A model generated the notes under the pieces. It was given only the letters and a program-made list of their open reading frames with translations. It made no database searches and had not been told where the DNA came from. From Kagunavirus NRG857CP3: a DNA stretch of 44,234 nucleotides. Position 1 is the stretch's first letter; each line of letters begins with the position of its first letter. The position numbers were made by a program, and so were the translations under genes. This document shows, one piece after another, positions 6,081-38,644 of this stretch. The stretch lies in the sequence record OZ035734.1; one strand, 5' to 3'.

Positions 6081-6162
6081 TTGCCTTGCGTGTTGGAATA
6101 ATTTATTCTTGACATGTAAATCCGGGTGGCCCGGGTTCCAACGTCCAGGGGACATACTGACT

Positions 6163-6867
6163 ATGAATCGTTTTTTACGTTATCCGTTCCAGGAAGAAGC
6201 TGGGGCAGAAGATAAATCTGGCGGCGGTGCCGCGCCGAAAATGTTCACAGCCGAAGAAGTTCAGGCGCTGATTGAGAAAGAAGTAGCCGGGCTTAAGGCC
6301 AATCAGGAAGCATTGCTGGCGGAGAAGAAAGAAGCCGCTCGTAAAGCAAAAGAAGCCGAAGAAGAACGGCAGCGCGCACACCAGGAGGCGTTAAAAGCTG
6401 CTGGTAAGATGGACGAGTTCGAAAAAACGATTCGTAGCCAGTATGACCCGGTGTTAGCCGAGAAAGATGGTCGCATCTCCAAAATGGCAGAGCGCATCCT
6501 CGGTAGCGAACGTAAAGCAGTGTTAGGTTCTTTCGCGGGGGACTTCATTACCCCGGAAGCAGTGGACATTCTTGCCCCGTTCGTTAAGACTGAGTTTGAA
6601 GGTGATGATGTGGTTACTAAGTTTGTCGGCGCAGACGGCAACGTAATCACGACTGACCCTGAACAGTTCCGCAAATACCTGCGTGAACACAAAGCGTTTT
6701 CGCATTTGATTAAAGCAAATGCAGCTTCCGGCGGCGGGGCTTCCGGTAGCAAAGGCGGCGGGGCCGCACCAGCGTTTAAAGACATGAGTGAAGCGGAGCG
6801 TATTGCTCTGTACGAATCGAACCCTGCCGAATTTGAACGGCAACTTAAAGCCCTGAGGAAAAAATAA
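6163..6867 (+). CDS. scaffolding protein
   Basis: Coiled-coil, A/E/K-rich protein directly upstream of and overlapping the capsid gene (TAATG); ORF track gives TTG start at 6109. Confidence 0.55.
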   Translation: MNRFLRYPFQEEAGAEDKSGGGAAPKMFTAEEVQALIEKEVAGLKANQEALLAEKKEAARKAKEAEEERQRAHQEALKAAGKMDEFEKTIRSQYDPVLAEKDGRISKMAERILGSERKAVLGSFAGDFITPEAVDILAPFVKTEFEGDDVVTKFVGADGNVITTDPEQFRKYLREHKAFSHLIKANAASGGGASGSKGGGAAPAFKDMSEAERIALYESNPAEFERQLKALRKK

Positions 6868-7916
6868 TGGCAATTACTACTATCGGCGATATCGTAACTG
6901 GTAAAGAATCGGTAATCCTGTCCTACATGACAGAGGACCCGGTAGAGAAAACCGCGTTCTTCCAGTCCGGTATCCTTACCCCGACTCCGTACGCCGCCGC
7001 TATCGCAAACGGCCCGTCCAACAAAGCTGTTCTGCCGTACTGGAAAGCGATTGATACCTCTATCGAACCGAACTATTCGAACGATGTGTATCAGGATGTC
7101 GCCACCCCACGTAACGTGCAAACCGGTGAGATGGATGTTCGCGTGGCTTATCTGAACGAAGGTTTCGGCCAGGCGGATTTGACTGTTGAACTGACCAGCC
7201 AGAACCCGCTGCAATCCGTAGCGTCCCGTCTGGATAACTTCTGGCAGCGTCAGGCACAACGCCGTCTGATTGCCACCGCCCTCGGCCTGTATAACGACAA
7301 CGTAACGGCAACCGATGCTTACCACGAGCGGAACGACATGGTTATCGACGTGTCCGCAACTCTGGGCTTCGATTCTGGTGCGTTCATTGACGCTACCCAA
7401 ACCATGGGTGACGCGCTGATGGGTAATGGTGGTGAAGTGCTGGGGGCAATCGCGATGCATAGCTTCGTGTATGCACAGGCGCGTAAGCAACAGCTTATCG
7501 ACTTCATCCGCGATGCCGACAACAACACCATGTTTGCTACTTACCAGGGCTACCGCGTGATTGTTGACGACAGCATGACCGTAGTTGGTACTGGCTCCAG
7601 CCGTAAGTTCATCTCCATCATCTTCGGCAACGGCGCTATCGGTTATGGCGAAGGCAATCCGTCTAATCCACTGGAATACGAGCGCGAAGCATCTCGCGGC
7701 AACGGCGGTGGCGTCGAAACCCTGTGGACCCGTAAGACCTGGTTGCTGCATCCGCTGGGTTACAGCTTCACCAGCGCGGTAATCACCGGTAACGGTACTG
7801 AAACCGTAGCCCGCTCTGCTTCCTGGCAGGACCTGGCGAACGCCTCCAACTGGAACCGCGTTGTTGATCGTAAGCATGTACCGATTGCCTTCCTGGTAAC
7901 TGGTGTAGGGGCTTAA
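6867..7916 (+). CDS. major capsid protein
   Basis: 349 aa, follows scaffold with overlapping stop/start, followed by strong terminator. Confidence 0.75.
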   Translation: MAITTIGDIVTGKESVILSYMTEDPVEKTAFFQSGILTPTPYAAAIANGPSNKAVLPYWKAIDTSIEPNYSNDVYQDVATPRNVQTGEMDVRVAYLNEGFGQADLTVELTSQNPLQSVASRLDNFWQRQAQRRLIATALGLYNDNVTATDAYHERNDMVIDVSATLGFDSGAFIDATQTMGDALMGNGGEVLGAIAMHSFVYAQARKQQLIDFIRDADNNTMFATYQGYRVIVDDSMTVVGTGSSRKFISIIFGNGAIGYGEGNPSNPLEYEREASRGNGGGVETLWTRKTWLLHPLGYSFTSAVITGNGTETVARSASWQDLANASNWNRVVDRKHVPIAFLVTGVGA

Positions 7917-7931
7917 GGTTAAGTTATAATC

Positions 7932-7960
7932 GAGAGGGACTTCGGTCCCTCTTTTCATTT
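7932..7960 (+). terminator. intrinsic terminator (GAGAGGGAC-TTCG-GTCCCTC + TTTTCATTT)
   Basis: GC stem-loop with U tract right after capsid gene. Confidence 0.7.
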
Positions 7961-10696: not shown

Positions 10697-11109
10697 TGGG
10701 CTACTTTGAGGACTTAACCAAAGCGTTCGATGTGCCGCTGGTAGCCTTCGGAGCCACCAACAACATCAAGGTCGCGCTTGAAAACATTGACGCGCCGACG
10801 TCAACCGATACGCCGTATCTGGCAAGTTACATGTTACTTGCGGATACCGAGCAGGCGGATTTGTTCTTCACGGAACAACGCTCTGGTGTTTATCAGGTCG
10901 ACATTAACTACGCATCGGTGAAAGGTAGCGCGCCAATCAATAAAATGGCAGACTTACTTAACACGGCGTTTAAAGCAGGTAAGTCATTTTCACGTAACGA
11001 CATCTGCGCCGAGGTTCAATCGGTAAGCCTGGGGCCGCTGATTGTAGAAAACGGATGGGCCAAACGACCATTGTCAATTAACTTTATTGCATTCACCAAG
11101 AGGCTGTGA
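10693..11109 (+). CDS. structural protein (possible tail completion)
   Basis: Overlapping stop/start, gene order. Confidence 0.35.
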   Translation: MMGYFEDLTKAFDVPLVAFGATNNIKVALENIDAPTSTDTPYLASYMLLADTEQADLFFTEQRSGVYQVDINYASVKGSAPINKMADLLNTAFKAGKSFSRNDICAEVQSVSLGPLIVENGWAKRPLSINFIAFTKRL

Positions 11110-12278
11110 ATATGGCTACAACTCCTTTTAAGGGCGCGAATACCGCGCAATTCTATGTTGCGGAAACTACCCCGGGCGTAACCCCAGACAACCCTGTCTG
11201 GTCGCCGTTGCGTAACACGGGTGGCGTCCCTGCTATTACCCGCGACACGCTGACATCCAACGAGCTGGACGGCAGCCGTGAAACTACGTCCATCCGCACC
11301 GGTAACAAACAGGTTAGCGGGGAATATGCTATTGAGCTTAGCTCGAAAAGCCAGGATGACTGGTTGGCAGGTGCCTTAGGCTCTACATGGCAATCCGGTG
11401 TTTCTCTGTCCGGGCTGTCGATTACCGTCGCGCCTGCAGGTAAGACGTTCACCCGTGCTGATGGCAGCTTTATTACCGACGGCGTTGAAGTTGGCGACCT
11501 GATTGCGTTTACCGACTTAACCGGCGATAACGCAAAACCGTTTATCGTAACCGGGGTAAGTGCGACTGTTGTCACCGGTGCAGGTATTCAGCACACTCTC
11601 ACCACTGAGACGGTAACTACCGCAGCTAAGACCGGCGACAAACTGGAAACTGGTAGCCAGTGTAAAACGTTCTCTATTCTCACCTGGTACAAAGGCCAGT
11701 GCGGCGGGACTGACGCGTACGCACTAACCAAAGGCGTGGAAGTTTCTGGTTTTACCGTCGAGCAGGCCGTTAACGCGATGGTAACGGGCAGCTTCCCGTT
11801 CATCGGGCGCAGCCAGGAGATTCTCACCGAGCCGCCGTCTGGTTCTGATTTCTCCTCTGTTACGTTTGGTGACGAGCCATTCTCTTCGGTTGACGTTTCT
11901 GTGTTCGACGGTTCCACGCCGTTGCGTTGCGATAGCCTGACTATCACCAACGATAACAGCGCGTCTGCGCAGTTCGAACTCGGCAACACTAACGTGGCAT
12001 TTGTGGAGCGTAGCCGCGCGGCTAATACCTTCTCCATCTCCGGTAAGCTGTACGACATGGCTATGATTCAGAAGTTTATCAACGAGCAGCAGGTAGAGAT
12101 TAACTCTATTCTGGCGGGGGTAAACGGGGCTATGTCTTTCAGCCTGAAACGCGCGGAACTAACGGCGGTTACACCAGAGATTGGAGGACCTGAGTCAATC
12201 ACTCAGTCTATTGAGGGTCAGGCTACAGGCAACCAGTACCAGTCGTCTATCGTAATTCAACGTATCACCTACGCATAA
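11106..12278 (+). CDS. major tail protein (putative)
   Basis: 390 aa T/S/G-rich protein located upstream of chaperone pair and tape measure. Confidence 0.5.
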   Translation: MNMATTPFKGANTAQFYVAETTPGVTPDNPVWSPLRNTGGVPAITRDTLTSNELDGSRETTSIRTGNKQVSGEYAIELSSKSQDDWLAGALGSTWQSGVSLSGLSITVAPAGKTFTRADGSFITDGVEVGDLIAFTDLTGDNAKPFIVTGVSATVVTGAGIQHTLTTETVTTAAKTGDKLETGSQCKTFSILTWYKGQCGGTDAYALTKGVEVSGFTVEQAVNAMVTGSFPFIGRSQEILTEPPSGSDFSSVTFGDEPFSSVDVSVFDGSTPLRCDSLTITNDNSASAQFELGNTNVAFVERSRAANTFSISGKLYDMAMIQKFINEQQVEINSILAGVNGAMSFSLKRAELTAVTPEIGGPESITQSIEGQATGNQYQSSIVIQRITYA

Positions 12279-12308
12279 AACTAAGGCCCCAAACGGGGCC
12301 TTTTTCTT
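12279..12308. terminator. bidirectional intrinsic terminator (AACTAAGGCCCC-AAAC-GGGGCC-TTTTTCTT)
   Basis: Same palindromic family; between major tail gene (+) and island (-). Confidence 0.7.
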
Positions 12309-12861
12309 ACAAACCTAATTTTAAAGCAATGTCTACAACGTTCGATTTAACATCACCTGGTATGATGTATGTGTCGTAATCTTTTACACCGATAACATCA
12401 TACAGATACTCCCTGCTATCGCCGATGAACGTATAACCGTCCCGGTGCAAGCGAACAATTCGCACGTCATGCCCCGCGGCGACGATAGGGGCTACTTCGC
12501 TGGCGAACCCGCCATCGGACACTACAAAAACTTCGTCGCCGTCTGGCAAGTTTTCAGCAAGATACTTACCGAAATAATCATCGCCGAATACCGGTTTAAT
12601 GAACTGTTCAGAGATAGCAATCATGAATTGACGGCGAGACAAGCCATTAAGGAAACATTCTGGCTTTTCTTTCCGCGCTCGGTCGTCGTAGCCGTCGAGA
12701 AATTCGTGGTAAGCATCCGGGCCTAACGCGGCCAGAGCAATATTGAACATTGGATTCTTGAAACTGGTAGTTCCCTTCGCAAAGCCCATCTCTACCAGCG
12801 CCCTAGCAAGCGTGTCTTTCCCGCAACCCGCAGGGCCATTAAGAATAATTACCTTAGCCAT
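12307..12861 (-). CDS. P-loop nucleotide kinase, dNMP kinase-like
   Basis: Walker A GPAGCGKDT at N-terminus; later block FVVSDGGF...GHDVRIVRLHRDG resembles T4 gene 1 dNMP kinase pattern (recalled, not searched). Confidence 0.6.
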   Translation of the reverse strand: MAKVIILNGPAGCGKDTLARALVEMGFAKGTTSFKNPMFNIALAALGPDAYHEFLDGYDDRARKEKPECFLNGLSRRQFMIAISEQFIKPVFGDDYFGKYLAENLPDGDEVFVVSDGGFASEVAPIVAAGHDVRIVRLHRDGYTFIGDSREYLYDVIGVKDYDTYIIPGDVKSNVVDIALKLGL

Positions 12862-13346
12862 TATTTATCGCTCCCGTGTGATTTTAAGTGTGTAGAGTTC
12901 CCATTACAGTCGTATTCAGTAACCGCGTGAGTGGTTATACCGAGTCCGCGGAAATGCTTTATTACCGCCGGAGAGTCGTCGAACGCACACAAGATTCTTT
13001 CCAGCCCGATAGCGCGCAACACTTCTTCTTTAATTACAATGTCTTTTCTGTTGTCGTGTTTGCTGCGCATGATTAGCTGATAAAATTCGACGCGGTGGCG
13101 CTGCAACCACATTCTGGTTTCTTTTTCTGCGTCATCACTGCGGCCGGTTAAAATAATAACGGCATAGCGACGATTAAGGGCGTTACACAGTTCGATGTTA
13201 TCTTTAATCGGCGCATCATCTTTGCACGCCATGTTAAAGGGCTTCCATGCCCATGTTTCGTTGTAGTTATCTTTCGGCAACAGGTGTAAGCGATGCGTAC
13301 CGTCTGCTAATGTTCCATCTAAATCGAAAATAACAATATCTTTCAT
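12861..13346 (-). CDS. HAD-superfamily phosphatase, polynucleotide kinase 3'-phosphatase-like
   Basis: N-terminal DLDGTLA (DxDGT) motif, TGR, NRKDIVIKEEV and AFDDSP blocks resembling T4 Pnk phosphatase domain (recalled). Confidence 0.65.
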   Translation of the reverse strand: MKDIVIFDLDGTLADGTHRLHLLPKDNYNETWAWKPFNMACKDDAPIKDNIELCNALNRRYAVIILTGRSDDAEKETRMWLQRHRVEFYQLIMRSKHDNRKDIVIKEEVLRAIGLERILCAFDDSPAVIKHFRGLGITTHAVTEYDCNGNSTHLKSHGSDK

Positions 13347-14473
13347 CCCAGCATCTCCGGTGAAATAGTTAAACGTGCGACCTCGCCATATTCGGCGCTA
13401 TAAGTAATTACATTTGCACTACGGCCTGACATCCATCCGCCGCGAGAGGCGTAGGCGTCTTTAGCCGCTAAGGTGCGGTGCTGCTCAACAATCATGTTAC
13501 GGCTTTCCACAATCTTCTGATGGTGCAGGTGACCTACGTGAGCGTAGCTGTAAACACTCTCGCCGAACGCTTTGCGAAACTTGGCAATCATAACAGGCTC
13601 GATTGCGTCGAATCGTGCTTTATGGCCGTGGTGGAAAAACAGTGTCGTTTTGCCGTGTTGCACCATCTTATATACGTCCGGCGACGTATCGACAATCACC
13701 CGGCTGTCGTTTGCATATAAAGTTGTGAACATCTCTGCCAACCACACGGAGCCTACAGGGTCGTGGTTTCCTTGCACAACTAGCAGCTTCACGGTTTTAT
13801 GCTTAACCAGCGCCATATCTACAACACGGCGTACCATGCGAATCATGTAGCGGACAAGCTTCTGGTAGCGCGTGTCGGCGTCAAGGACGTGGCGTGACTC
13901 CGGTGTAACGGCGTCCAGACTATCGAAGTGTGCGAAGTCGCCAAGCAGGTTAATAACCCCTGTTCCCGCGTCCGGCGCTCTCTGGAATGCCGCGTCGAAC
14001 CATCGAGAGAACAGGTCTTCCGCAATTTTCATATCCCAGTCATCGCCGCTCTCGTCGGCCCACGCCAGCATACCGAGATGGAAATCAGACACGGTGTACA
14101 GGTTAAGCAGCTTATCGTCGCGTTTGGTACGGGCGGCCTTCACTGGGGCTACCGGGGTAATCTCCGACTTCATGCCTTCGATTACGGCTTTCATCAACTC
14201 AACCTGACGTTCGGCGTCTGTATCGGTCTTAACCCACTGCAACTTAGTGTTTCCGAACTCGTCCACCAGAGACGACGTACCCTTAATCTTGTATCCATCC
14301 GGCACAAGGTGGCTTACGTCGCGCCCGTGGCCTACACCCTTCTTAGCCAGCTTCGCTTTACGGATGCGGATAACGCGGTCTGAGATGCCGTATTTACGGG
14401 CGATATCGATATTCTTCATCCCGGCGTTCAATTCTTCCTGTAATTGCTCGTCGGTTATTTTCTTCTGGGCCAT
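13343..14473 (-). CDS. HTH domain fused to calcineurin-like metallophosphoesterase (Mre11/SbcD/CpdA-type motifs)
   Basis: Motifs DFH, LLGDFAHFD, QGNHD, FHHGH, HVGHLHH; N-terminal HTH-like segment NIDIARKYGISDRVIRIRKAKL; start set at ATG after GAGGAAG (ORF track 14578). Confidence 0.65.
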   Translation of the reverse strand: MAQKKITDEQLQEELNAGMKNIDIARKYGISDRVIRIRKAKLAKKGVGHGRDVSHLVPDGYKIKGTSSLVDEFGNTKLQWVKTDTDAERQVELMKAVIEGMKSEITPVAPVKAARTKRDDKLLNLYTVSDFHLGMLAWADESGDDWDMKIAEDLFSRWFDAAFQRAPDAGTGVINLLGDFAHFDSLDAVTPESRHVLDADTRYQKLVRYMIRMVRRVVDMALVKHKTVKLLVVQGNHDPVGSVWLAEMFTTLYANDSRVIVDTSPDVYKMVQHGKTTLFFHHGHKARFDAIEPVMIAKFRKAFGESVYSYAHVGHLHHQKIVESRNMIVEQHRTLAAKDAYASRGGWMSGRSANVITYSAEYGEVARLTISPEMLG

Positions 14474-14511
14474 GCTTACTTCCTCGTGTTTAGGATTTGT
14501 CTTATAGTAGC

Positions 14512-14703
14512 CTACTTCTCTTTCACGTTCGAGTTGCAAGCCCAGATTAAAATGAATACCCACGGCAACAGAACCCACCCTAGAAATAAGTTAGCCATGA
14601 ATATCGCCAGCTTTGCTTTATGGTTACGGAAGTAGGCAACTAAAAAAGGCGCAAAGTACGCGAGCAGTGCAAACAGGATTAAGGAAATCGGTAAACTGGA
14701 CAT
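14512..14703 (-). CDS. small membrane protein (two predicted TM helices)
   Basis: 63 aa hydrophobic ORF, first gene of island transcript, RBS GAAGGGG. Confidence 0.45.
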   Translation of the reverse strand: MSSLPISLILFALLAYFAPFLVAYFRNHKAKLAIFMANLFLGWVLLPWVFILIWACNSNVKEK

Positions 14704-14734
14704 TTTAAAACCCCTTCATTGTTGGTGTAAGCGA

Positions 14735-14763
14735 ATAGTACGCTATTATATTGGGGTGCGCAA
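14735..14763 (-). promoter_or_regulatory. sigma70-like promoter (TTGCGC-N17-TACTAT, minus strand) with conserved leader ACACCAACAA driving the island
   Basis: Third copy of conserved promoter-leader element. Confidence 0.55.
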
Positions 14764-14870
14764 GTAGTGTGTTAGAATAATTTTGCGCCTAGTGTCGCAC
14801 ACGAAAAGCGGGTGGTTCCCGTCTGGCGCATTTCCTTTAACCAGTAACCTCTTAACCAAAGGATTAAAGA

Positions 14871-15290
14871 ATGAAACTTTCTGATTTTTATTTTGAAGAG
14901 AAAGCGATGGTAGGCAAGAAGATGCCGATTCTCCTGCCGAACGGTGAAGACTCGGGGGAGTGGCTTAACGTAGTAAGCCCTGATGCCGATGTCGCCGTTA
15001 AAGCGGGTCGCGCTTTCATTATTGCGTACCGTCGCGGGCTTGCACGTTTTGAAGAACTCGAAAAAGCCGCCAAAGAATCCGGCGACTATACTGAATATAA
15101 CCTGGCGATTAATGAACTGGCAGAAGACCTGAACCGCCAACTCGCTGCGGAAGTCGTCAACGGCTGGAGCTTTGATGATGAACCGTTCTCCAAAGAGGCG
15201 TTTAATAAGCTTCTAGACCAGTTCAAGGGGCTTGGTACTCAGGTAGCCGCGTTTCACAATGCAGAGCGTAAAGCGTTACAGGAAAAGTAG
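14871..15290 (+). CDS. tail assembly chaperone (G-like)
   Basis: 139 aa acidic protein immediately upstream of tape measure; followed by overlapping -1 frame ORF. Confidence 0.55.
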   Translation: MKLSDFYFEEKAMVGKKMPILLPNGEDSGEWLNVVSPDADVAVKAGRAFIIAYRRGLARFEELEKAAKESGDYTEYNLAINELAEDLNRQLAAEVVNGWSFDDEPFSKEAFNKLLDQFKGLGTQVAAFHNAERKALQEK

Positions 15291-27317: not shown

Positions 27318-27445
27318 TCAAGCACCCACAGATAAATCGCGATGAACATACCTAATACGGCGACCATCATGCCGTATTGGCCCTCGTGACAGTAGACACC
27401 GGCGGCAAACCCCGCCAGTACCGCAATACTCAGTTTACTTAGCAT
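27314..27445 (-). CDS. small hydrophobic ORF (43 aa, predicted membrane peptide)
   Basis: Found by reading; overlaps 3' end of polymerase gene; coordinates approximate. Confidence 0.2.
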   Translation of the reverse strand: MLSKLSIAVLAGFAAGVYCHEGQYGMMVAVLGMFIAIYLWVLE

Positions 27446-29687
27446 AACGCTTCATCTCCGCACCTTCCGCGACAAGAGGGAAGCCTTCTGCCCATTCCGG
27501 TAATTCGCACATCAATCGCCCCAGTTCAGCTACATTGTATTCCGGTAAATCCGGTGTCTCGCAGATAATTTCGTCATGTACGTGAAGCACAATCGGATAG
27601 CCGTTTGCTTCGACGTTCAGCAGCGCATTAGCCAGCAAATCACGGCACAGCGCCTGCGTGCAGTTTTCCACCAGTTTACCGGAGTAGGTGTACTGGAACC
27701 CCCACTGACGGGTTAACTGGTTTTCACCCTGGTACTTGATGCGCACGTTAGTTGACACCTTTCCATCTTCGTCTGTCTCTTTCGACACGCTTAACCCGAT
27801 GCCCGGGTAAGACATAACGCGACCCGACGGCAACGTCATGCGCAACCACCAACCAGCGACTTTGTTGCCGTTGTTGTCTGTCTCCACGTTACGCGAAAAC
27901 TTGACCCCCCGCGGCCCTGCAGTAAACTCTTTGCCAGGATTTCGGATAGCCGCCATTGCCGCGTCTTCAATATCCCGCCAGAAAGCTACGGTTTCCGGGT
28001 GGGACTCGCGCCACATACGCTTGATAGCGTCACAGGTACGCCACACTTTCTTATCAAGAATATACGAGGGTCTGTCATCCTTTTCGCCAGGACGTGGGGG
28101 GCGCTTAGCCTCCTGAATACGCGCCCACTCGTATCCGCGTGCGGTAGCAGCCCATATATGGTCAGGGAATGTCCCTTCCATTGTTTTTGCCATATCAACA
28201 AGGTTTAAGCCGAGGTTCTTAGCAAACTGAACGAAAGCACCGACACCGCCCGCGTAGCCGAGGCCCAATTCACAGGCTTTACCAATCTGGCGTAGGTCAC
28301 TACGGCTTTCGAGAATGTAATCAGGGTCCATGCCGAACATCTTACCCGCCGTTACGCAGTAAATATCCAATCCAGCACGGAAGGTATCCAGCGCGGTTTC
28401 TTCACCAGCAAGCCACGCAAGCCCACGGCCTTCGACGTTAGAGTAATCGGCGACGACAAACTTATGTCCGGATTCCGGTATGATGCAGCTACGCACCGTA
28501 GATGCCGTTAGTTTGGCTACATCAAAACGGCGATGTGCACGGCCTTTAAACAACAGGTCGATTCCGTAGGACAATGGGTGTGTTACTCGCCACCAGTCCT
28601 TCTCTGACATCCAGTCATAACGTACTTTCTTCTTTTTATTCTTCGGGTCGTCGTGATAGTACCCGCGCGCGAGGTTCTGCGGCTGGAAGCCTTTACCAGC
28701 AAATCGTAACGTACGCTTAGCTCCACCGTACTGGATGCAACCACGACGGCGGTCGTCAGACGAGCGGCCCAACAGCAGCGGGTTATATTTCGTTGACGCC
28801 GTGGACGCGGCCCCGAGGCGCATTTCGATAATCGTGCGGGCATCGTCAGGTAAATCATCGTCCGCCAACAAGTCATTCAGCGTTGACTTCTGTGCGTTGT
28901 GGATCCGGTGCGCAGGCGCAAGTTCACGCAGAATAGGCAGGAAATCTTTACCAGTAAGCGACCCGCCGTATTTGCGCTGGGCTTCCTCCTGTAACTGTGC
29001 CTTGTGCTTCTCCACGGCTTCAATCGCGGCTTCCGCCAGCGCGACGTCAACCTTAAACCCACGGTCGTTGATTAACTGGTCCAGTTCCAGTACGCGGTCC
29101 TCGAACTCGGAGTTACCCCAACGCGGTAGCTTATGGAATACTTCTCGCATCGCAGTGATGTCGCTCACGGCGTACTTGATAAACAAAGCCCACTCGTCTG
29201 GGTGTGTTTCGGCGGTGTAACGGCGGATTTTGTAGTTCTTCGGTGTCGGTTTAGAGAAACGCTTAATCAGTGCCTTGCCGCGTTTATCTTTCGCGTTGTC
29301 GGCGGATACGCCAAACACTTCGCACAATGCGTCAAGTGAACCCGGCAGCGCGTGACGAAACGCCCAAATCATCGTATCAATGGTGTTGCTTACAGGAATA
29401 TCAAAGCCCCAGCAATGTTTCATGATGAGACGATCGAACATTGAGCCGTTGTGCCACACCATCTTGATGCGACTGTTCGGTTTCACCAGACGGCGTAACG
29501 CGCGGTGCAAATCTCCCGGCATGTCGCTGCCGTCGGTGCAATCCCATACCTGTACAGGCTCGTCGTCAAAGGCATATGTGCAGATAAGCACTTCGGTTGA
29601 CGGGTGTTCGGCGTAAGCATAGGAACCGACTTTCTTTAAATCGATGTCGCTGTAGGTTTCAAAGTCTAAGAAGAGTAATTCTGGCAT
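27435..29687 (-). CDS. DNA polymerase I family (family A) with N-terminal 3'-5' exonuclease domain
   Basis: Exo I motif LFLDFETYS at N-terminus; 750 aa; C-terminal HVHDEI-type block. Confidence 0.85.
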   Translation of the reverse strand: MPELLFLDFETYSDIDLKKVGSYAYAEHPSTEVLICTYAFDDEPVQVWDCTDGSDMPGDLHRALRRLVKPNSRIKMVWHNGSMFDRLIMKHCWGFDIPVSNTIDTMIWAFRHALPGSLDALCEVFGVSADNAKDKRGKALIKRFSKPTPKNYKIRRYTAETHPDEWALFIKYAVSDITAMREVFHKLPRWGNSEFEDRVLELDQLINDRGFKVDVALAEAAIEAVEKHKAQLQEEAQRKYGGSLTGKDFLPILRELAPAHRIHNAQKSTLNDLLADDDLPDDARTIIEMRLGAASTASTKYNPLLLGRSSDDRRRGCIQYGGAKRTLRFAGKGFQPQNLARGYYHDDPKNKKKKVRYDWMSEKDWWRVTHPLSYGIDLLFKGRAHRRFDVAKLTASTVRSCIIPESGHKFVVADYSNVEGRGLAWLAGEETALDTFRAGLDIYCVTAGKMFGMDPDYILESRSDLRQIGKACELGLGYAGGVGAFVQFAKNLGLNLVDMAKTMEGTFPDHIWAATARGYEWARIQEAKRPPRPGEKDDRPSYILDKKVWRTCDAIKRMWRESHPETVAFWRDIEDAAMAAIRNPGKEFTAGPRGVKFSRNVETDNNGNKVAGWWLRMTLPSGRVMSYPGIGLSVSKETDEDGKVSTNVRIKYQGENQLTRQWGFQYTYSGKLVENCTQALCRDLLANALLNVEANGYPIVLHVHDEIICETPDLPEYNVAELGRLMCELPEWAEGFPLVAEGAEMKRYAK

Positions 29688-36620: not shown

Positions 36621-36823
36621 TGGAAGAATTATTTGAAGAGCTAAAACACCATGAACTGGAAGAAGTGCATTTCATAGCTAACCATTACAGGGTTACTTTA
36701 TTAGGCGGTTCGACTATTTCTTCCGGGGTATGGGAAGACCTGCTAAAAGTTTTGCGTGTGCTTCGAACGGCATCGAATCATGATGCTCGTGCCGACGGCT
36801 CTGAGGGAGGTTGCCGTAAATGA
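36617..36823 (+). CDS. hypothetical protein
   Basis: Overlapping stop/start GTGATGG. Confidence 0.35.
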   Translation: MMEELFEELKHHELEEVHFIANHYRVTLLGGSTISSGVWEDLLKVLRVLRTASNHDARADGSEGGCRK

Positions 36824-37077
36824 ATAACACTGAACTGGAAACTGTTGCCGAAAAACTGCATAAGGTGCGGGTAATGGCTCGGGGCGCAGGGCTGGAGCAA
36901 TTTTACAACATGTGGCGCACAGCGACGCGCGACCCTGATTTCACGAGAACAGGGTGTCTCTTGTATAAAGACGTTTATCCGATTCGTGCTCGCAAGGATT
37001 ACGGTTGGGTTCGTGAAACGCCTAATCTTTTGTGGTGTTGGGCGCATGGTGAGTTCTGGGTAAGGGTTAAGGACTAA
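36820..37077 (+). CDS. hypothetical protein
   Basis: Overlapping stop/start ATGA. Confidence 0.4.
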   Translation: MNNTELETVAEKLHKVRVMARGAGLEQFYNMWRTATRDPDFTRTGCLLYKDVYPIRARKDYGWVRETPNLLWCWAHGEFWVRVKD

Positions 37078-37080
37078 GTT

Positions 37081-37224
37081 ATGAGAGAAGCATTTGAACG
37101 GTGGGCCGTCGTCGAGGGTCTGCCGGTTAACAAGGGTTCGAAGAAAGAGTACCTGAACGTTAAGACGCGTCTCGCGTGGCGGGCGTGGAAAGCTGGTGTG
37201 TTGTCTGTTACGAGTCCGAGGTGA
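37081..37224 (+). CDS. small hypothetical protein (47 aa)
   Basis: ATG after AAGGA; found by reading. Confidence 0.3.
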   Translation: MREAFERWAVVEGLPVNKGSKKEYLNVKTRLAWRAWKAGVLSVTSPR

Positions 37225-37227
37225 GAT

Positions 37228-37452
37228 ATGGGCAAGTGGGTTAAGTGTAGTGAGCGGATGCCTGATAGCAATTGCTTGTATCTTTGCTGGGGGACGTATT
37301 TTGAAGGGGGTGAGCCAGGTTACATTCCATCTTATTTCTTCGCCCATCAAACCAATGGATGTGTGGAGTGGCAGCCGGTAGAGGATGACTGCAATCCTCG
37401 CGAAGTAAGCATAACTCACTGGATGCCGTTACCGGAGCCGCCGGAACAATAG
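37228..37452 (+). CDS. DUF551-like protein
   Basis: N-terminal WVKCSERMPD motif characteristic of DUF551 (recalled). Confidence 0.45.
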   Translation: MGKWVKCSERMPDSNCLYLCWGTYFEGGEPGYIPSYFFAHQTNGCVEWQPVEDDCNPREVSITHWMPLPEPPEQ

Positions 37453-37918: not shown

Positions 37919-38644
37919 ATGAGTAACAAAAACGAAGTATTCGAGTATCTGATTGACCAGCTACGGCAGCAGGTAAATAAGAAAGATGTGACATCCTTCA
38001 ATGTATCTGTGCGGATATCAGACCTTGATGAGGTCAAGCAGGTAATCCACAACCTACAGCAGCATATCGCTGGTAAGGACGACGAAATACGTGTGCTGAA
38101 AGACAGACTACGGCAGCAGCTAGAGGTCGTAGATGTAGTGGGTGAAATCAAACGGTGGAGTATTGACCGTAGTATTGCTGGCCGCGGTAACTATACCGAC
38201 GAGGAAAACGCCGTAATCGATGCTTACATCGGCCTGGAGCACGACCCGTACAAGCAACAGTGCGAAGACCTGGCGCATGAGGTGCAGTCACTTAAGAATC
38301 AGTTACGTGATGCGTCGGCGCAGATTAAGGAGTTGCATAAAGGGCTTGAGTATATTGGGGGCGAGTACAGACGAGCACTTGATTACGATCTTAGCGATGA
38401 ACCTAAGCAATCTGGTTGCCGTAAGGGATACACCCAGAAATCATGCTGGATTGAGTGGTCAGGAGGAGCTTGCCCTGTGCCGCGCGGAACACTTGTAGAT
38501 GTTATTTACCGCGACGGGGAAACCTTATGTGGCTTGCCTGCTGATGAGCTTAACGACACGGAAAGAGATGCTAGCGTCTGCTTTTGGCGACACAATGGTA
38601 TGTCTAATGACATAGTTCGTTACCGTAAGGCCGTGCGCCAATGA
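37919..38644 (+). CDS. hypothetical protein, coiled-coil N-terminus, conserved Cys/Trp-rich C-terminal domain (possibly Ea22-like)
   Basis: C-terminal block WIEWSGGACPVPRGTLVDV; family assignment from memory only. Confidence 0.4.
   Translation: MSNKNEVFEYLIDQLRQQVNKKDVTSFNVSVRISDLDEVKQVIHNLQQHIAGKDDEIRVLKDRLRQQLEVVDVVGEIKRWSIDRSIAGRGNYTDEENAVIDAYIGLEHDPYKQQCEDLAHEVQSLKNQLRDASAQIKELHKGLEYIGGEYRRALDYDLSDEPKQSGCRKGYTQKSCWIEWSGGACPVPRGTLVDVIYRDGETLCGLPADELNDTERDASVCFWRHNGMSNDIVRYRKAVRQ

Follow-up and report, generated by a model that had tools for sequence, protein, structure and literature searches.

A four-gene accessory operon in the tail module of a Kagunavirus genome and its possible role in DNA and nucleotide metabolism

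The closest described counterparts of the genes considered here occur in Drexlerviridae, where a metallophosphoesterase (MPE) annotated as a ‘DNA repair exonuclease’ was classed as persistent, with 508 of 522 genomes carrying it, in a 2026 paper on this family (KanT1; PMC13164509). Genes labelled ‘PNK’ and deoxynucleoside monophosphate (dNMP) kinase often follow the exonuclease gene in these phages, and a role in boosting the supply of nucleotides has been proposed for them (PMC13164509). In T1 and TLS infections, host DNA is degraded and its nucleotides are used again (PMC11447400). A further phage-encoded MPE has been described in mycobacteriophages of cluster A, where it degrades DNA in vitro as well as the DNA of the host in vivo, and normal replication of phage DNA in M. 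tuberculosis depends on the MPE gp48 of phage A10ZJ24 (PMC12287305). The locus analysed here is a minus-strand set of four genes within the tail module of Kagunavirus NRG857CP3 (sequence record OZ035734.1). The whole stretch of 44,234 nucleotides, hereafter the window, is by its matches to phage records a complete or near-complete Kagunavirus (Guernseyvirinae) genome.

The initial annotation of the window, made from the letters alone, had described this island as encoding a membrane protein, a helix-turn-helix (HTH)-MPE, a Pnk-like HAD phosphatase and a dNMP-kinase-like P-loop protein. All four open reading frames (ORFs) are found at the place described, each with a family match far beyond chance; the domain calls are correct, and the motifs quoted in their support (GPAGCGKDT, DLDGTLA, DFH, GDFAHFD, GNHD, HHGH and GHLHH) are all present in the translations. 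In the order of transcription, the genes encode an Imm-type superinfection-immunity membrane protein of 63 amino acids (aa) (14512-14703, minus strand; Pfam PF14373, PHROG 1039), an HTH-fused calcineurin-like MPE of 376 aa (13343-14473, minus strand; PHROG 704), a stand-alone Pnk-type HAD phosphatase of 161 aa (12861-13346, minus strand; HAD_PNKP, PHROG 415) and a T4-gp1-family dNMP kinase of 184 aa (12307-12861, minus strand; PHROG 139, P-loop GPAGCGKDT). The stop codon of the MPE gene and the start codon of the HAD gene share the sequence ATGA, and the stop of the HAD gene and the start of the kinase gene share TAATG; as these overlaps indicate, the three genes are translationally coupled. 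The orientation of the island is that of the minus-strand replication genes, which encode a helicase, PolA, a gp2.5-like single-stranded DNA-binding protein, an exonuclease and a primase-helicase. The reading that we favour, and hold with about even confidence, is an accessory operon for DNA and nucleotide metabolism that would combine Imm-mediated exclusion, an MPE nuclease, and a HAD phosphatase and dNMP kinase feeding deoxynucleoside diphosphates (dNDPs). A nucleotide-pool module, which had been listed initially as an alternative to RNA repair, is therefore the reading favoured by the evidence. The cassette and its product names are already public in dozens of Kagunavirus GenBank records, where K1G-like genomes carry the labels ‘superinfection immunity protein’, ‘metallophosphoesterase / DNA repair exonuclease’, ‘polynucleotide kinase/phosphatase’ and ‘deoxynucleoside monophosphate kinase’. 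The locus is thus an ordinary, already annotated accessory operon of K1G-type phages, and all of its protein families are known.

The product of the fourth gene is predicted to be a gp1-family dNMP kinase and not a polynucleotide kinase. It matches PHROG 139 (‘dNMP kinase’) at 2e-45, as does T4 gp1 at 1.8e-65, whereas T4 Pnk belongs to PHROG 505 and has no PHROG 139 match; the T4 gp1 and T4 Pnk reference sequences were confirmed to be identical to PDB entries 1DEK and 1LTQ. In a profile comparison, 73 columns of the kinase align with gp1, against only a 26-column P-loop with the kinase domain of Pnk. PDB sequence searches with the kinase and with the MPE, both as single sequences and as profiles, returned P-loop or HTH noise only, and since these searches were uninformative the folds of the two proteins were assigned via structure prediction. 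The best structural match of the kinase is 1DEK (T4 gp1), and the GKDT P-loop is invariant in the kinase family and common to gp1. Distant homologues of the kinase gene are overlapped by, or lie beside, genes for dCMP deaminase, ThyX or a nucleoside 2-deoxyribosyltransferase-like protein. Gene 4 accordingly differs from the Pnk-family P-loop 5′-kinase of a T4-type end-healing system, and the ‘polynucleotide kinase’ labels in many database entries are probably misleading.

A ‘split Pnk’, in which the HAD phosphatase and the kinase would reconstitute Pnk from separate polypeptides, was considered and rejected as the principal explanation, given a kinase of the gp1 type whose distant homologues occur in pyrimidine-metabolism contexts. 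A variant of the gene order is seen on a 74-kb phage contig (locus L002, 4341-6594), where a distant MPE (28% identity) is followed by a DUF4406/nucleoside 2-deoxyribosyltransferase-like gene in the HAD position and then by a kinase homologue, with a dCMP deaminase gene upstream of the trio and an ATP-dependent DNA ligase gene downstream. From this gene order, the middle enzyme of the trio therefore seems replaceable by another nucleotide-metabolism enzyme.

The third gene is assigned, by homology and conserved residues, to the Pnk clade of 3′-phosphatases as a genuine member, in a stand-alone form. Its product matches Pfam HAD_PNKP above the cut-off (2.5e-19) and PHROG 415 (3.1e-66), which is also matched by the phosphatase domain of T4 Pnk (3e-24), and its PDB sequence matches are to Pnkp1 (4xrp, 3.5e-6) and to the T4 Pnk phosphatase domain. 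When the protein is aligned with two T1-like homologues and T4 Pnk, the T4 residues D165, D167, R176, R213, D254, K258, D277 and D278 do not vary, and T takes the place of S211. These are the residues that we take to be the essential 3′-phosphatase set from the mutagenesis literature of the Shuman laboratory.

Membership of the HAD protein in the Pnk-phosphatase clade, with these catalytic residues kept, is a point in favour of the hypothesis advanced in the initial annotation, namely the healing of RNA or tRNA ends cut by anticodon nucleases. In such a system, the kinase would act on 5′-OH RNA, the HAD phosphatase, the MPE or both would remove 2′,3′-cyclic phosphates or 3′-phosphates, and a host ligase would seal the ends. 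The best PDB sequence match of the HAD protein, Pnkp1, belongs to a bacterial RNA-repair complex, and bacterial Pnkp uses an MPE-superfamily phosphoesterase (PMC2190708, PMC3675462). The evidence nevertheless does not support this hypothesis, which we consider extremely improbable. The kinase is gp1-type rather than Pnk-type, with distant homologues that adjoin dCMP deaminase and ThyX genes, and the MPE, HAD and kinase genes are not inherited together. The initial observation that no ligase was to be seen holds among window ORFs of at least 140 aa, as well as in the structure-assisted annotation of the relative EM1, and neither of the two unassigned ORFs of the window (213 and 241 aa) has a ligase family match. 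No tRNA or tmRNA gene was found by ARAGORN in the window (1-44234), and a fused ligase domain or Hen1 methyltransferase, as in Pnkp/Hen1 RNA repair, is absent from the window and from its relatives. The gene 2 MPE is not a module of the lambda-phosphatase/Pnkp type. Literature searches on HAD or Pnk proteins directed against anticodon nucleases gave nothing on this family. In addition, sensitivity of Guernseyvirinae to Ec2ApeA, a tRNA nuclease of the HEPN type that pdNG dinucleotides activate, has been reported in a 2026 preprint and is a mild argument against effective tRNA repair. The authors of the preprint propose that the pdNG activators come from host-DNA degradation, and the report is at the same time a mild argument for host-DNA breakdown during infection.

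The second gene encodes a member of PHROG 704 (‘DNA repair exonuclease’; 2.8e-163), which the Pfam Metallophos models match only below their cut-off. Its start is placed at the ATG at 14473 because the homologues, like the resulting protein, are 376 aa long; a mechanically called ORF with a GTG start extends to 14578, into gene 1. The protein comprises an HTH (residues 1-45; 14339-14473), a linker made up of a beta-hairpin and a helix, and an MPE domain (residues 119-376; 13346-14119). The AlphaFold2 model (pLDDT 90.9) has the same layout, with a three-helix HTH at the N-terminus followed by the beta-hairpin and helix and then by the MPE domain. Weak sequence matches to LuxR/GerE and FixJ support the HTH, and its fusion to the MPE, for which no explanation had been offered initially, is a family-wide trait of this MPE clade. 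All five MPE motifs (DxH, GDxxH, GNHD, H and GHxH) are present and are invariant or near-invariant across 40 homologues, with D130, H132, G178, D179, N236, H237, H282 and H317 invariant, and H182, D238 and H315 conserved in at least 90% of the 40.

The MPE family is large, with 4,565 clusters at 50% identity and members in 2,032 phage records, and spans Guernseyvirinae, Drexlerviridae and phages of Vibrio, Campylobacter and others. The window protein is 98% identical to its homologue in BASEL phage Bas71, homologues in the 73-75% identity band probably belong to Dhillonvirus relatives, and T1 ST16 is a family member at 44% identity. T1-like, K1G/Jersey-like and Dhillon-like siphoviruses all have the MPE as a core gene. 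Its distant homologues are found, without HAD or kinase genes, in replication modules beside genes for helicase, primase, PolA, 5′-3′ exonuclease and PIF1. One distant homologue (about 35% identity; locus L092, 4001-5487) is followed directly by an antiterminator-Q gene, within a replication/nin region of the lambdoid type. Its position is that of ninI on the lambda map, the gene for the MPE-superfamily lambda phosphatase.

A Foldseek search with the MPE model gave near-equal E-values for Rv0805 (the best), Mre11 and DP1, which do not separate the nucleases from this cNMP phosphodiesterase, with TM-scores of 0.32 for Rv0805 against 0.41-0.44 for Mre11 and DP1. The comparison of predicted and known folds thus leans towards a nuclease over a small-molecule phosphodiesterase. 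Nucleic acid substrates are also favoured by the fused HTH and by the genomic context, and we infer that the protein is a Mn2+/Mg2+-dependent DNA nuclease in phage DNA metabolism. A very unlikely alternative, of a kind also listed initially, is that it serves as an anti-defence phosphodiesterase, hydrolysing cyclic AMP or other cyclic nucleoside monophosphates (cNMPs), cyclic oligonucleotides or 2′,3′-cNMP in the manner of CpdA and Rv0805, with the HAD phosphatase and the kinase recycling the products. Such a role would suit the accessory, moron-like flanks of the gene, which include a superinfection-exclusion gene. It would, however, leave the lower TM-score to Rv0805 (0.32 against 0.41-0.44), the conserved HTH fusion and the replication-module context, which point to nucleic acid substrates, without an explanation, and an anti-defence gene would not usually be core in more than 500 Drexlerviridae. 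Acb1 and Apyc1, the phage enzymes known to act in this way, are folded differently. Among the island proteins, the PADLOC defence library matched nothing, no known anti-defence family was matched, and NCBIfam gave sub-threshold matches only; literature searches on anti-defence metallophosphoesterases gave nothing on this MPE family.

The main rival to a nucleotide-metabolism operon also accepts the MPE as a nuclease, and assigns it to DNA end-processing or repair during replication or recombination. The MPE would then act like Mre11/SbcD or PolD DP1 on phage DNA ends or hairpins, the HAD phosphatase would restore 3′-OH groups at 3′-phosphate breaks for the phage PolA and the host ligase, and the kinase would merely be a neighbouring nucleotide-supply gene. 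This alternative, possible though fairly unlikely in our estimation, is consistent with the occurrence of MPE homologues within replication/recombination modules, with HAD homologues that adjoin DNA ligase genes in other phages (H142), and with the status of the MPE as core and of the HAD and kinase genes as accessory. The requirement for mycobacteriophage gp48 in normal phage DNA replication in M. tuberculosis points in the same direction (PMC12287305). However, the phage already has a PHROG 69 exonuclease, a gp2.5-like annealing protein and a RusA-like resolvase, no Rad50/SbcC partner was found in the window, and the tie between the HAD phosphatase and the dNMP kinase, present in 65 of 80 loci (below), is left unexplained.

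Nucleotide comparison of the region 12100-15000 gave matches in 322 phage records, all of them Guernseyvirinae or close relatives. The best match at the DNA level is to Escherichia phage BUCT825 (90%), followed by K1G, K1ind and other Kagunavirus records (88-89%), and at least 80% of the island is covered in only 48 of the 322 records. Linkage was scored in 80 viral-contig loci gathered with the kinase alignment, from the positions of their HAD and MPE genes. A HAD gene lies upstream of the kinase gene on the same strand in 65 of the 80 loci, and the kinase gene occurs alone in the other 15. The full order MPE-HAD-kinase is present in 26 of the 80, of which 16 are Kagunavirus loci; among the remaining 10, at least some are T1-like. 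The conserved pair is HAD then kinase, and the MPE is a stable anchor with exchangeable cargo.

The three enzymes are accordingly not co-inherited, as Jerseyviruses and the Kagunaviruses Bas70 and Bas71 keep the MPE without the HAD and kinase genes. Jerseyvirus Shelanagig has imm, the MPE gene, a 76-aa gene and an antirepressor gene, with HAD and kinase missing. In Bas70, Bas71 and fEg-Eco19, all Kagunaviruses, an MPE of 94-98% identity is accompanied by unrelated small genes, without HAD or kinase, and Bas70 and Bas71 (MPE 97-98% identical) also lack imm. Across the phage collection, the MPE is found at 90% identity or more in about 111 records, and the kinase or HAD at 80% or more in only about 52-56. 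The island as first described is therefore sound as an observation, but not as an indivisible four-gene unit; what relatives share is a conserved MPE gene with exchangeable cargo on either side.

In T1, the genes for the HAD phosphatase (ST64), an HNH homing endonuclease (ST63) and the kinase (ST62) are located together (L008, 4948-6534), with the MPE gene (ST16) about 12 kb away. Other T1-like loci have up to about 2 kb of extra genes between HAD and kinase, with order and strand kept, and T1-like contigs carry the same MPE-HAD-kinase trio beside genes for Dam, helicase and VRR-NUC. Within the island, the alleles are mosaic (loci L011-L026): imm is 94-98% identical, 71-73% identical or absent, and HAD is either 83-88% or 95-99% identical. 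Identity of the HAD protein to its counterpart in OQ696342.1 (vB_EcoS-K1_SXAU_B4) is 100%, yet no record has DNA identity of at least 95% across the island. Together, the mosaic alleles and the pattern of HAD identity point to recent recombination inside the cassette.

Mosaicism of this kind raises the alternative that the island has no joint function and is a recombination hotspot, at which unrelated morons (imm, the HAD-kinase pair, the 76-aa gene, the antirepressor gene and HNH genes) have settled beside a core nuclease gene. The imm alleles (71% against 94-98%, or absent) and the two HAD identity classes are in keeping with a hotspot, as are the change of cargo even at 97-98% MPE identity in Bas70 and Bas71 and the 76-aa and antirepressor genes that a Jerseyvirus has instead. 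We nonetheless judge it distinctly unlikely, given that the order MPE-HAD-kinase is found again in T1-like phages that are unrelated and only 40-50% identical, and that the stop/start overlaps of the three genes imply co-expression.

The small membrane protein encoded by the first gene, which had initially been left unexplained, is an Imm-family superinfection-immunity protein (PF14373, PHROG 1039). Its match to Pfam PF14373 (Imm_superinfect) scores 7.5e-13, with 48.6 bits against a cut-off of 27.9, and its match to PHROG 1039 (‘immunity to superinfection’) scores 1.5e-22; the records of relatives carry the same annotation.

As an accessory operon for DNA and nucleotide metabolism, the island would be transcribed opposite to the tail genes from its own weak sigma-70-like promoter, ending at a shared bidirectional terminator. 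The Imm membrane protein would exclude superinfecting phages, and the HTH-MPE would contribute to breakdown of the host chromosome, to the processing of replication or recombination intermediates, or to both. The HAD phosphatase would strip 3′-phosphates from nuclease products, whether 3′-phosphorylated DNA ends, oligonucleotides or pdNp, and the kinase would convert 5′-dNMPs to dNDPs, with host Ndk completing the route to deoxynucleoside triphosphates (dNTPs) for phage DNA synthesis. A deoxynucleotide role is suggested for the Pnk-type phosphatase because it is habitually coupled to a dNMP kinase, and not to a polynucleotide kinase. The scheme thus places predicted substrates, a predicted nuclease activity and a predicted salvage role on the observed family membership, operon structure and synteny.

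Several points weigh against the scheme. T4 Pnk-type phosphatase is best known for its action on RNA ends. No SMC-like (Rad50/SbcC) or DP2-like partner ORF was found in the window, and the MPE appears to be missing the capping domain of Mre11-type enzymes. The HAD-kinase pair is dispensable, since Kagunaviruses without it (Bas70 and Bas71) are viable, and the MPE gene and the pair are often unlinked, so that the data do not call for a joint three-step pathway. Finally, in a published time course of a related phage (the K1B4 transcriptome), imm, the only island gene classified there, is classed as ‘late’ in what is a coarse classification, and this sits poorly with an early role in host takeover.

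A more ambitious form of the proposal, which we consider unlikely, is that the MPE-HAD-kinase gene order represents a three-step machinery for host-DNA breakdown and reuse in T1-type and K1G-type phages. The HTH-MPE would cut DNA to mono- and oligonucleotides with mixed 3′-PO4 and 3′-OH ends. The 3′-phosphates would then be removed by the Pnk-like phosphatase, its role shifted from RNA repair to the salvage of deoxynucleotides, and the gp1-like kinase would channel the dNMPs into the dNTP pool. An MPE nuclease of P. putida has reportedly been shown to yield product ends of both kinds, 3′-PO4 and 3′-OH.

A dNMPase together with a dNMP kinase takes part in DNA hypermodification in PBS2- and SPO1-type phages. 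A hypermodification pathway of this type was also considered for the island and was rejected, because Kagunaviruses are highly sensitive to restriction-modification systems, as reported in the BASEL-2 paper, which gives no island-specific phenotype.

The island is flanked as the initial annotation described, with the plus-strand gene for the major tail or tail-tube protein (11106-12278) on one side and the plus-strand tail assembly chaperone and tape-measure genes (from 14871) on the other. The palindromic terminator that had been placed at 12279..12308 corresponds to the hairpin AAGGCCCC-loop-GGGGCCTT (12283-12302), which has 8 pairs, 6 of them G-C, a loop of 4 and T-rich tails both ways, and which is scored as a terminator on both strands. 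It is predicted to be a bidirectional intrinsic terminator common to the convergent tail-tube gene (plus strand) and the island (minus strand). At the other end, the promoter-like element TTGCGC-N17-TACTAT, read from the sequence upstream of imm (14735-14763, minus strand), is kept in 11 Kagunavirus loci and has the form TTGCAT-N17-TATTAT in a Jerseyvirus (sister genus). Its spacer contains a perfect TATAAT (14745-14750). The claim of a promoter here thus gains from conservation across Kagunavirus loci and the Jerseyvirus, but the element has 7 of 12 consensus matches, which is under the threshold of the consensus promoter scan, and promoter-like matches in the region are not more frequent than in shuffled sequence, so that it is statistically not established. 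A weak sigma-70-like island promoter at 14735-14763 is plausible.

Because the terminator sits at 12283-12302, the tail chaperone and tape-measure genes need a transcription restart. The intergenic region between imm (minus strand) and the tail chaperone gene (plus strand) (14704-14870) is near-invariant in Kagunaviruses and largely kept in a Jerseyvirus, and is apparently better conserved than the coding DNA on either side. An extended -10-like element, TGtTAGAAT (14770-14778, plus strand), also read from the sequence, faces the tail chaperone and tape-measure genes and falls within a block conserved across genera. The region holds, in addition, a CGGG-aacca-CCCG hairpin and a TGCGCC...GGCGCA inverted repeat, and probably serves as the promoter or leader from which the chaperone, tape-measure and distal tail genes restart.

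Some features elsewhere in the window were observed in passing. Residues 468-562 of the 750-aa PolA-type polymerase ORF (27435-29687, minus strand) match PHROG 93 (‘endonuclease’) at 1.6e-13, and could represent an inserted or fused homing-endonuclease-like segment; in the relative EM1, unlike in the window, a separate HNH gene abuts the polymerase gene. Only two of the larger window ORFs have no functional assignment, namely a 213-aa ORF with a GTG start (36778-37419, minus strand), which has zero PHROG matches, and a 241-aa ORF (37919-38644, plus strand), which matches only PHROGs of unknown function (phrog_6094). A 551-aa minus-strand ORF (6303-7958) runs antisense to the scaffold and major-head genes (6109-7916, plus strand) and is almost certainly a chance ORF, the sense strand there coding for protein.

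As it stands, the finding matters little, since the names are public and the three-gene order is already in print for Drexlerviridae, where it was interpreted as serving ‘nucleotide supply’. What value is left is that of a test case for the genes behind T1-like host-DNA degradation and nucleotide reuse (PMC11447400), given a core MPE gene from a family present in about 2,000 sequenced phages. If the three-step proposal were true, the MPE, the Pnk-type phosphatase and the dNMP kinase would together make up the route, so far missing in T1-type phages, that salvages host DNA into dNTPs. The question is cheap to test with natural variants, as Bas70 and Bas71 are without the HAD, kinase and Imm genes that K1G-type phages carry.

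Among known systems, T4 provides counterparts of the Imm, HAD and kinase proteins. Gene 1 has in common with T4 Imm a PF14373 match above the curated cut-off, but is shorter (63 aa) and occurs in some relatives only, with unrelated small genes in its place in Bas70 and Bas71. The HAD protein keeps the DxDxT motif and the Pnk-specific Arg, Asp and Lys residues of the phosphatase domain of T4 Pnk (PseT, 1LTQ), but has no fused Pnk-type kinase domain; the neighbouring kinase is of a different family, and the Rnl1/Rnl2 ligase partner of the T4 system was not found among window ORFs of at least 140 aa. The kinase shares PHROG 139 membership, the nucleoside monophosphate kinase fold and the GK(D)T P-loop with T4 gp1 (1DEK), from which it differs in identity (19%), in length (184 against 241 aa) and in a profile match that spans only the N-terminal 73 columns. 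The PHROG 704-type MPE family is set apart from Mre11, SbcD and the PolD DP1 exonuclease by an N-terminal HTH and beta-hairpin unique to it, and no Rad50/SbcC partner was found in the window. Membership of this family in that of the mycobacteriophage host-DNase/recombination directionality factor MPE (Bxb1 gp47, A10ZJ24 gp48) was considered and rejected (hhalign probability 12%; PHROG 221). Both MPEs are phage-encoded, and the mycobacteriophage cluster A protein, whose gene lies in the replication region, is about 255 aa long, without an HTH and in PHROG 221, so that the likeness is one of analogy only. The nearest parallel remains that with Drexlerviridae, whose genes lie in a replication/lysis-proximal region rather than in the tail module, with no Imm gene upstream. 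The same three families are present there at 41-52% identity (T1 ST16, ST64 and ST62), in the same order and orientation in many T1-like phages, although not in T1.

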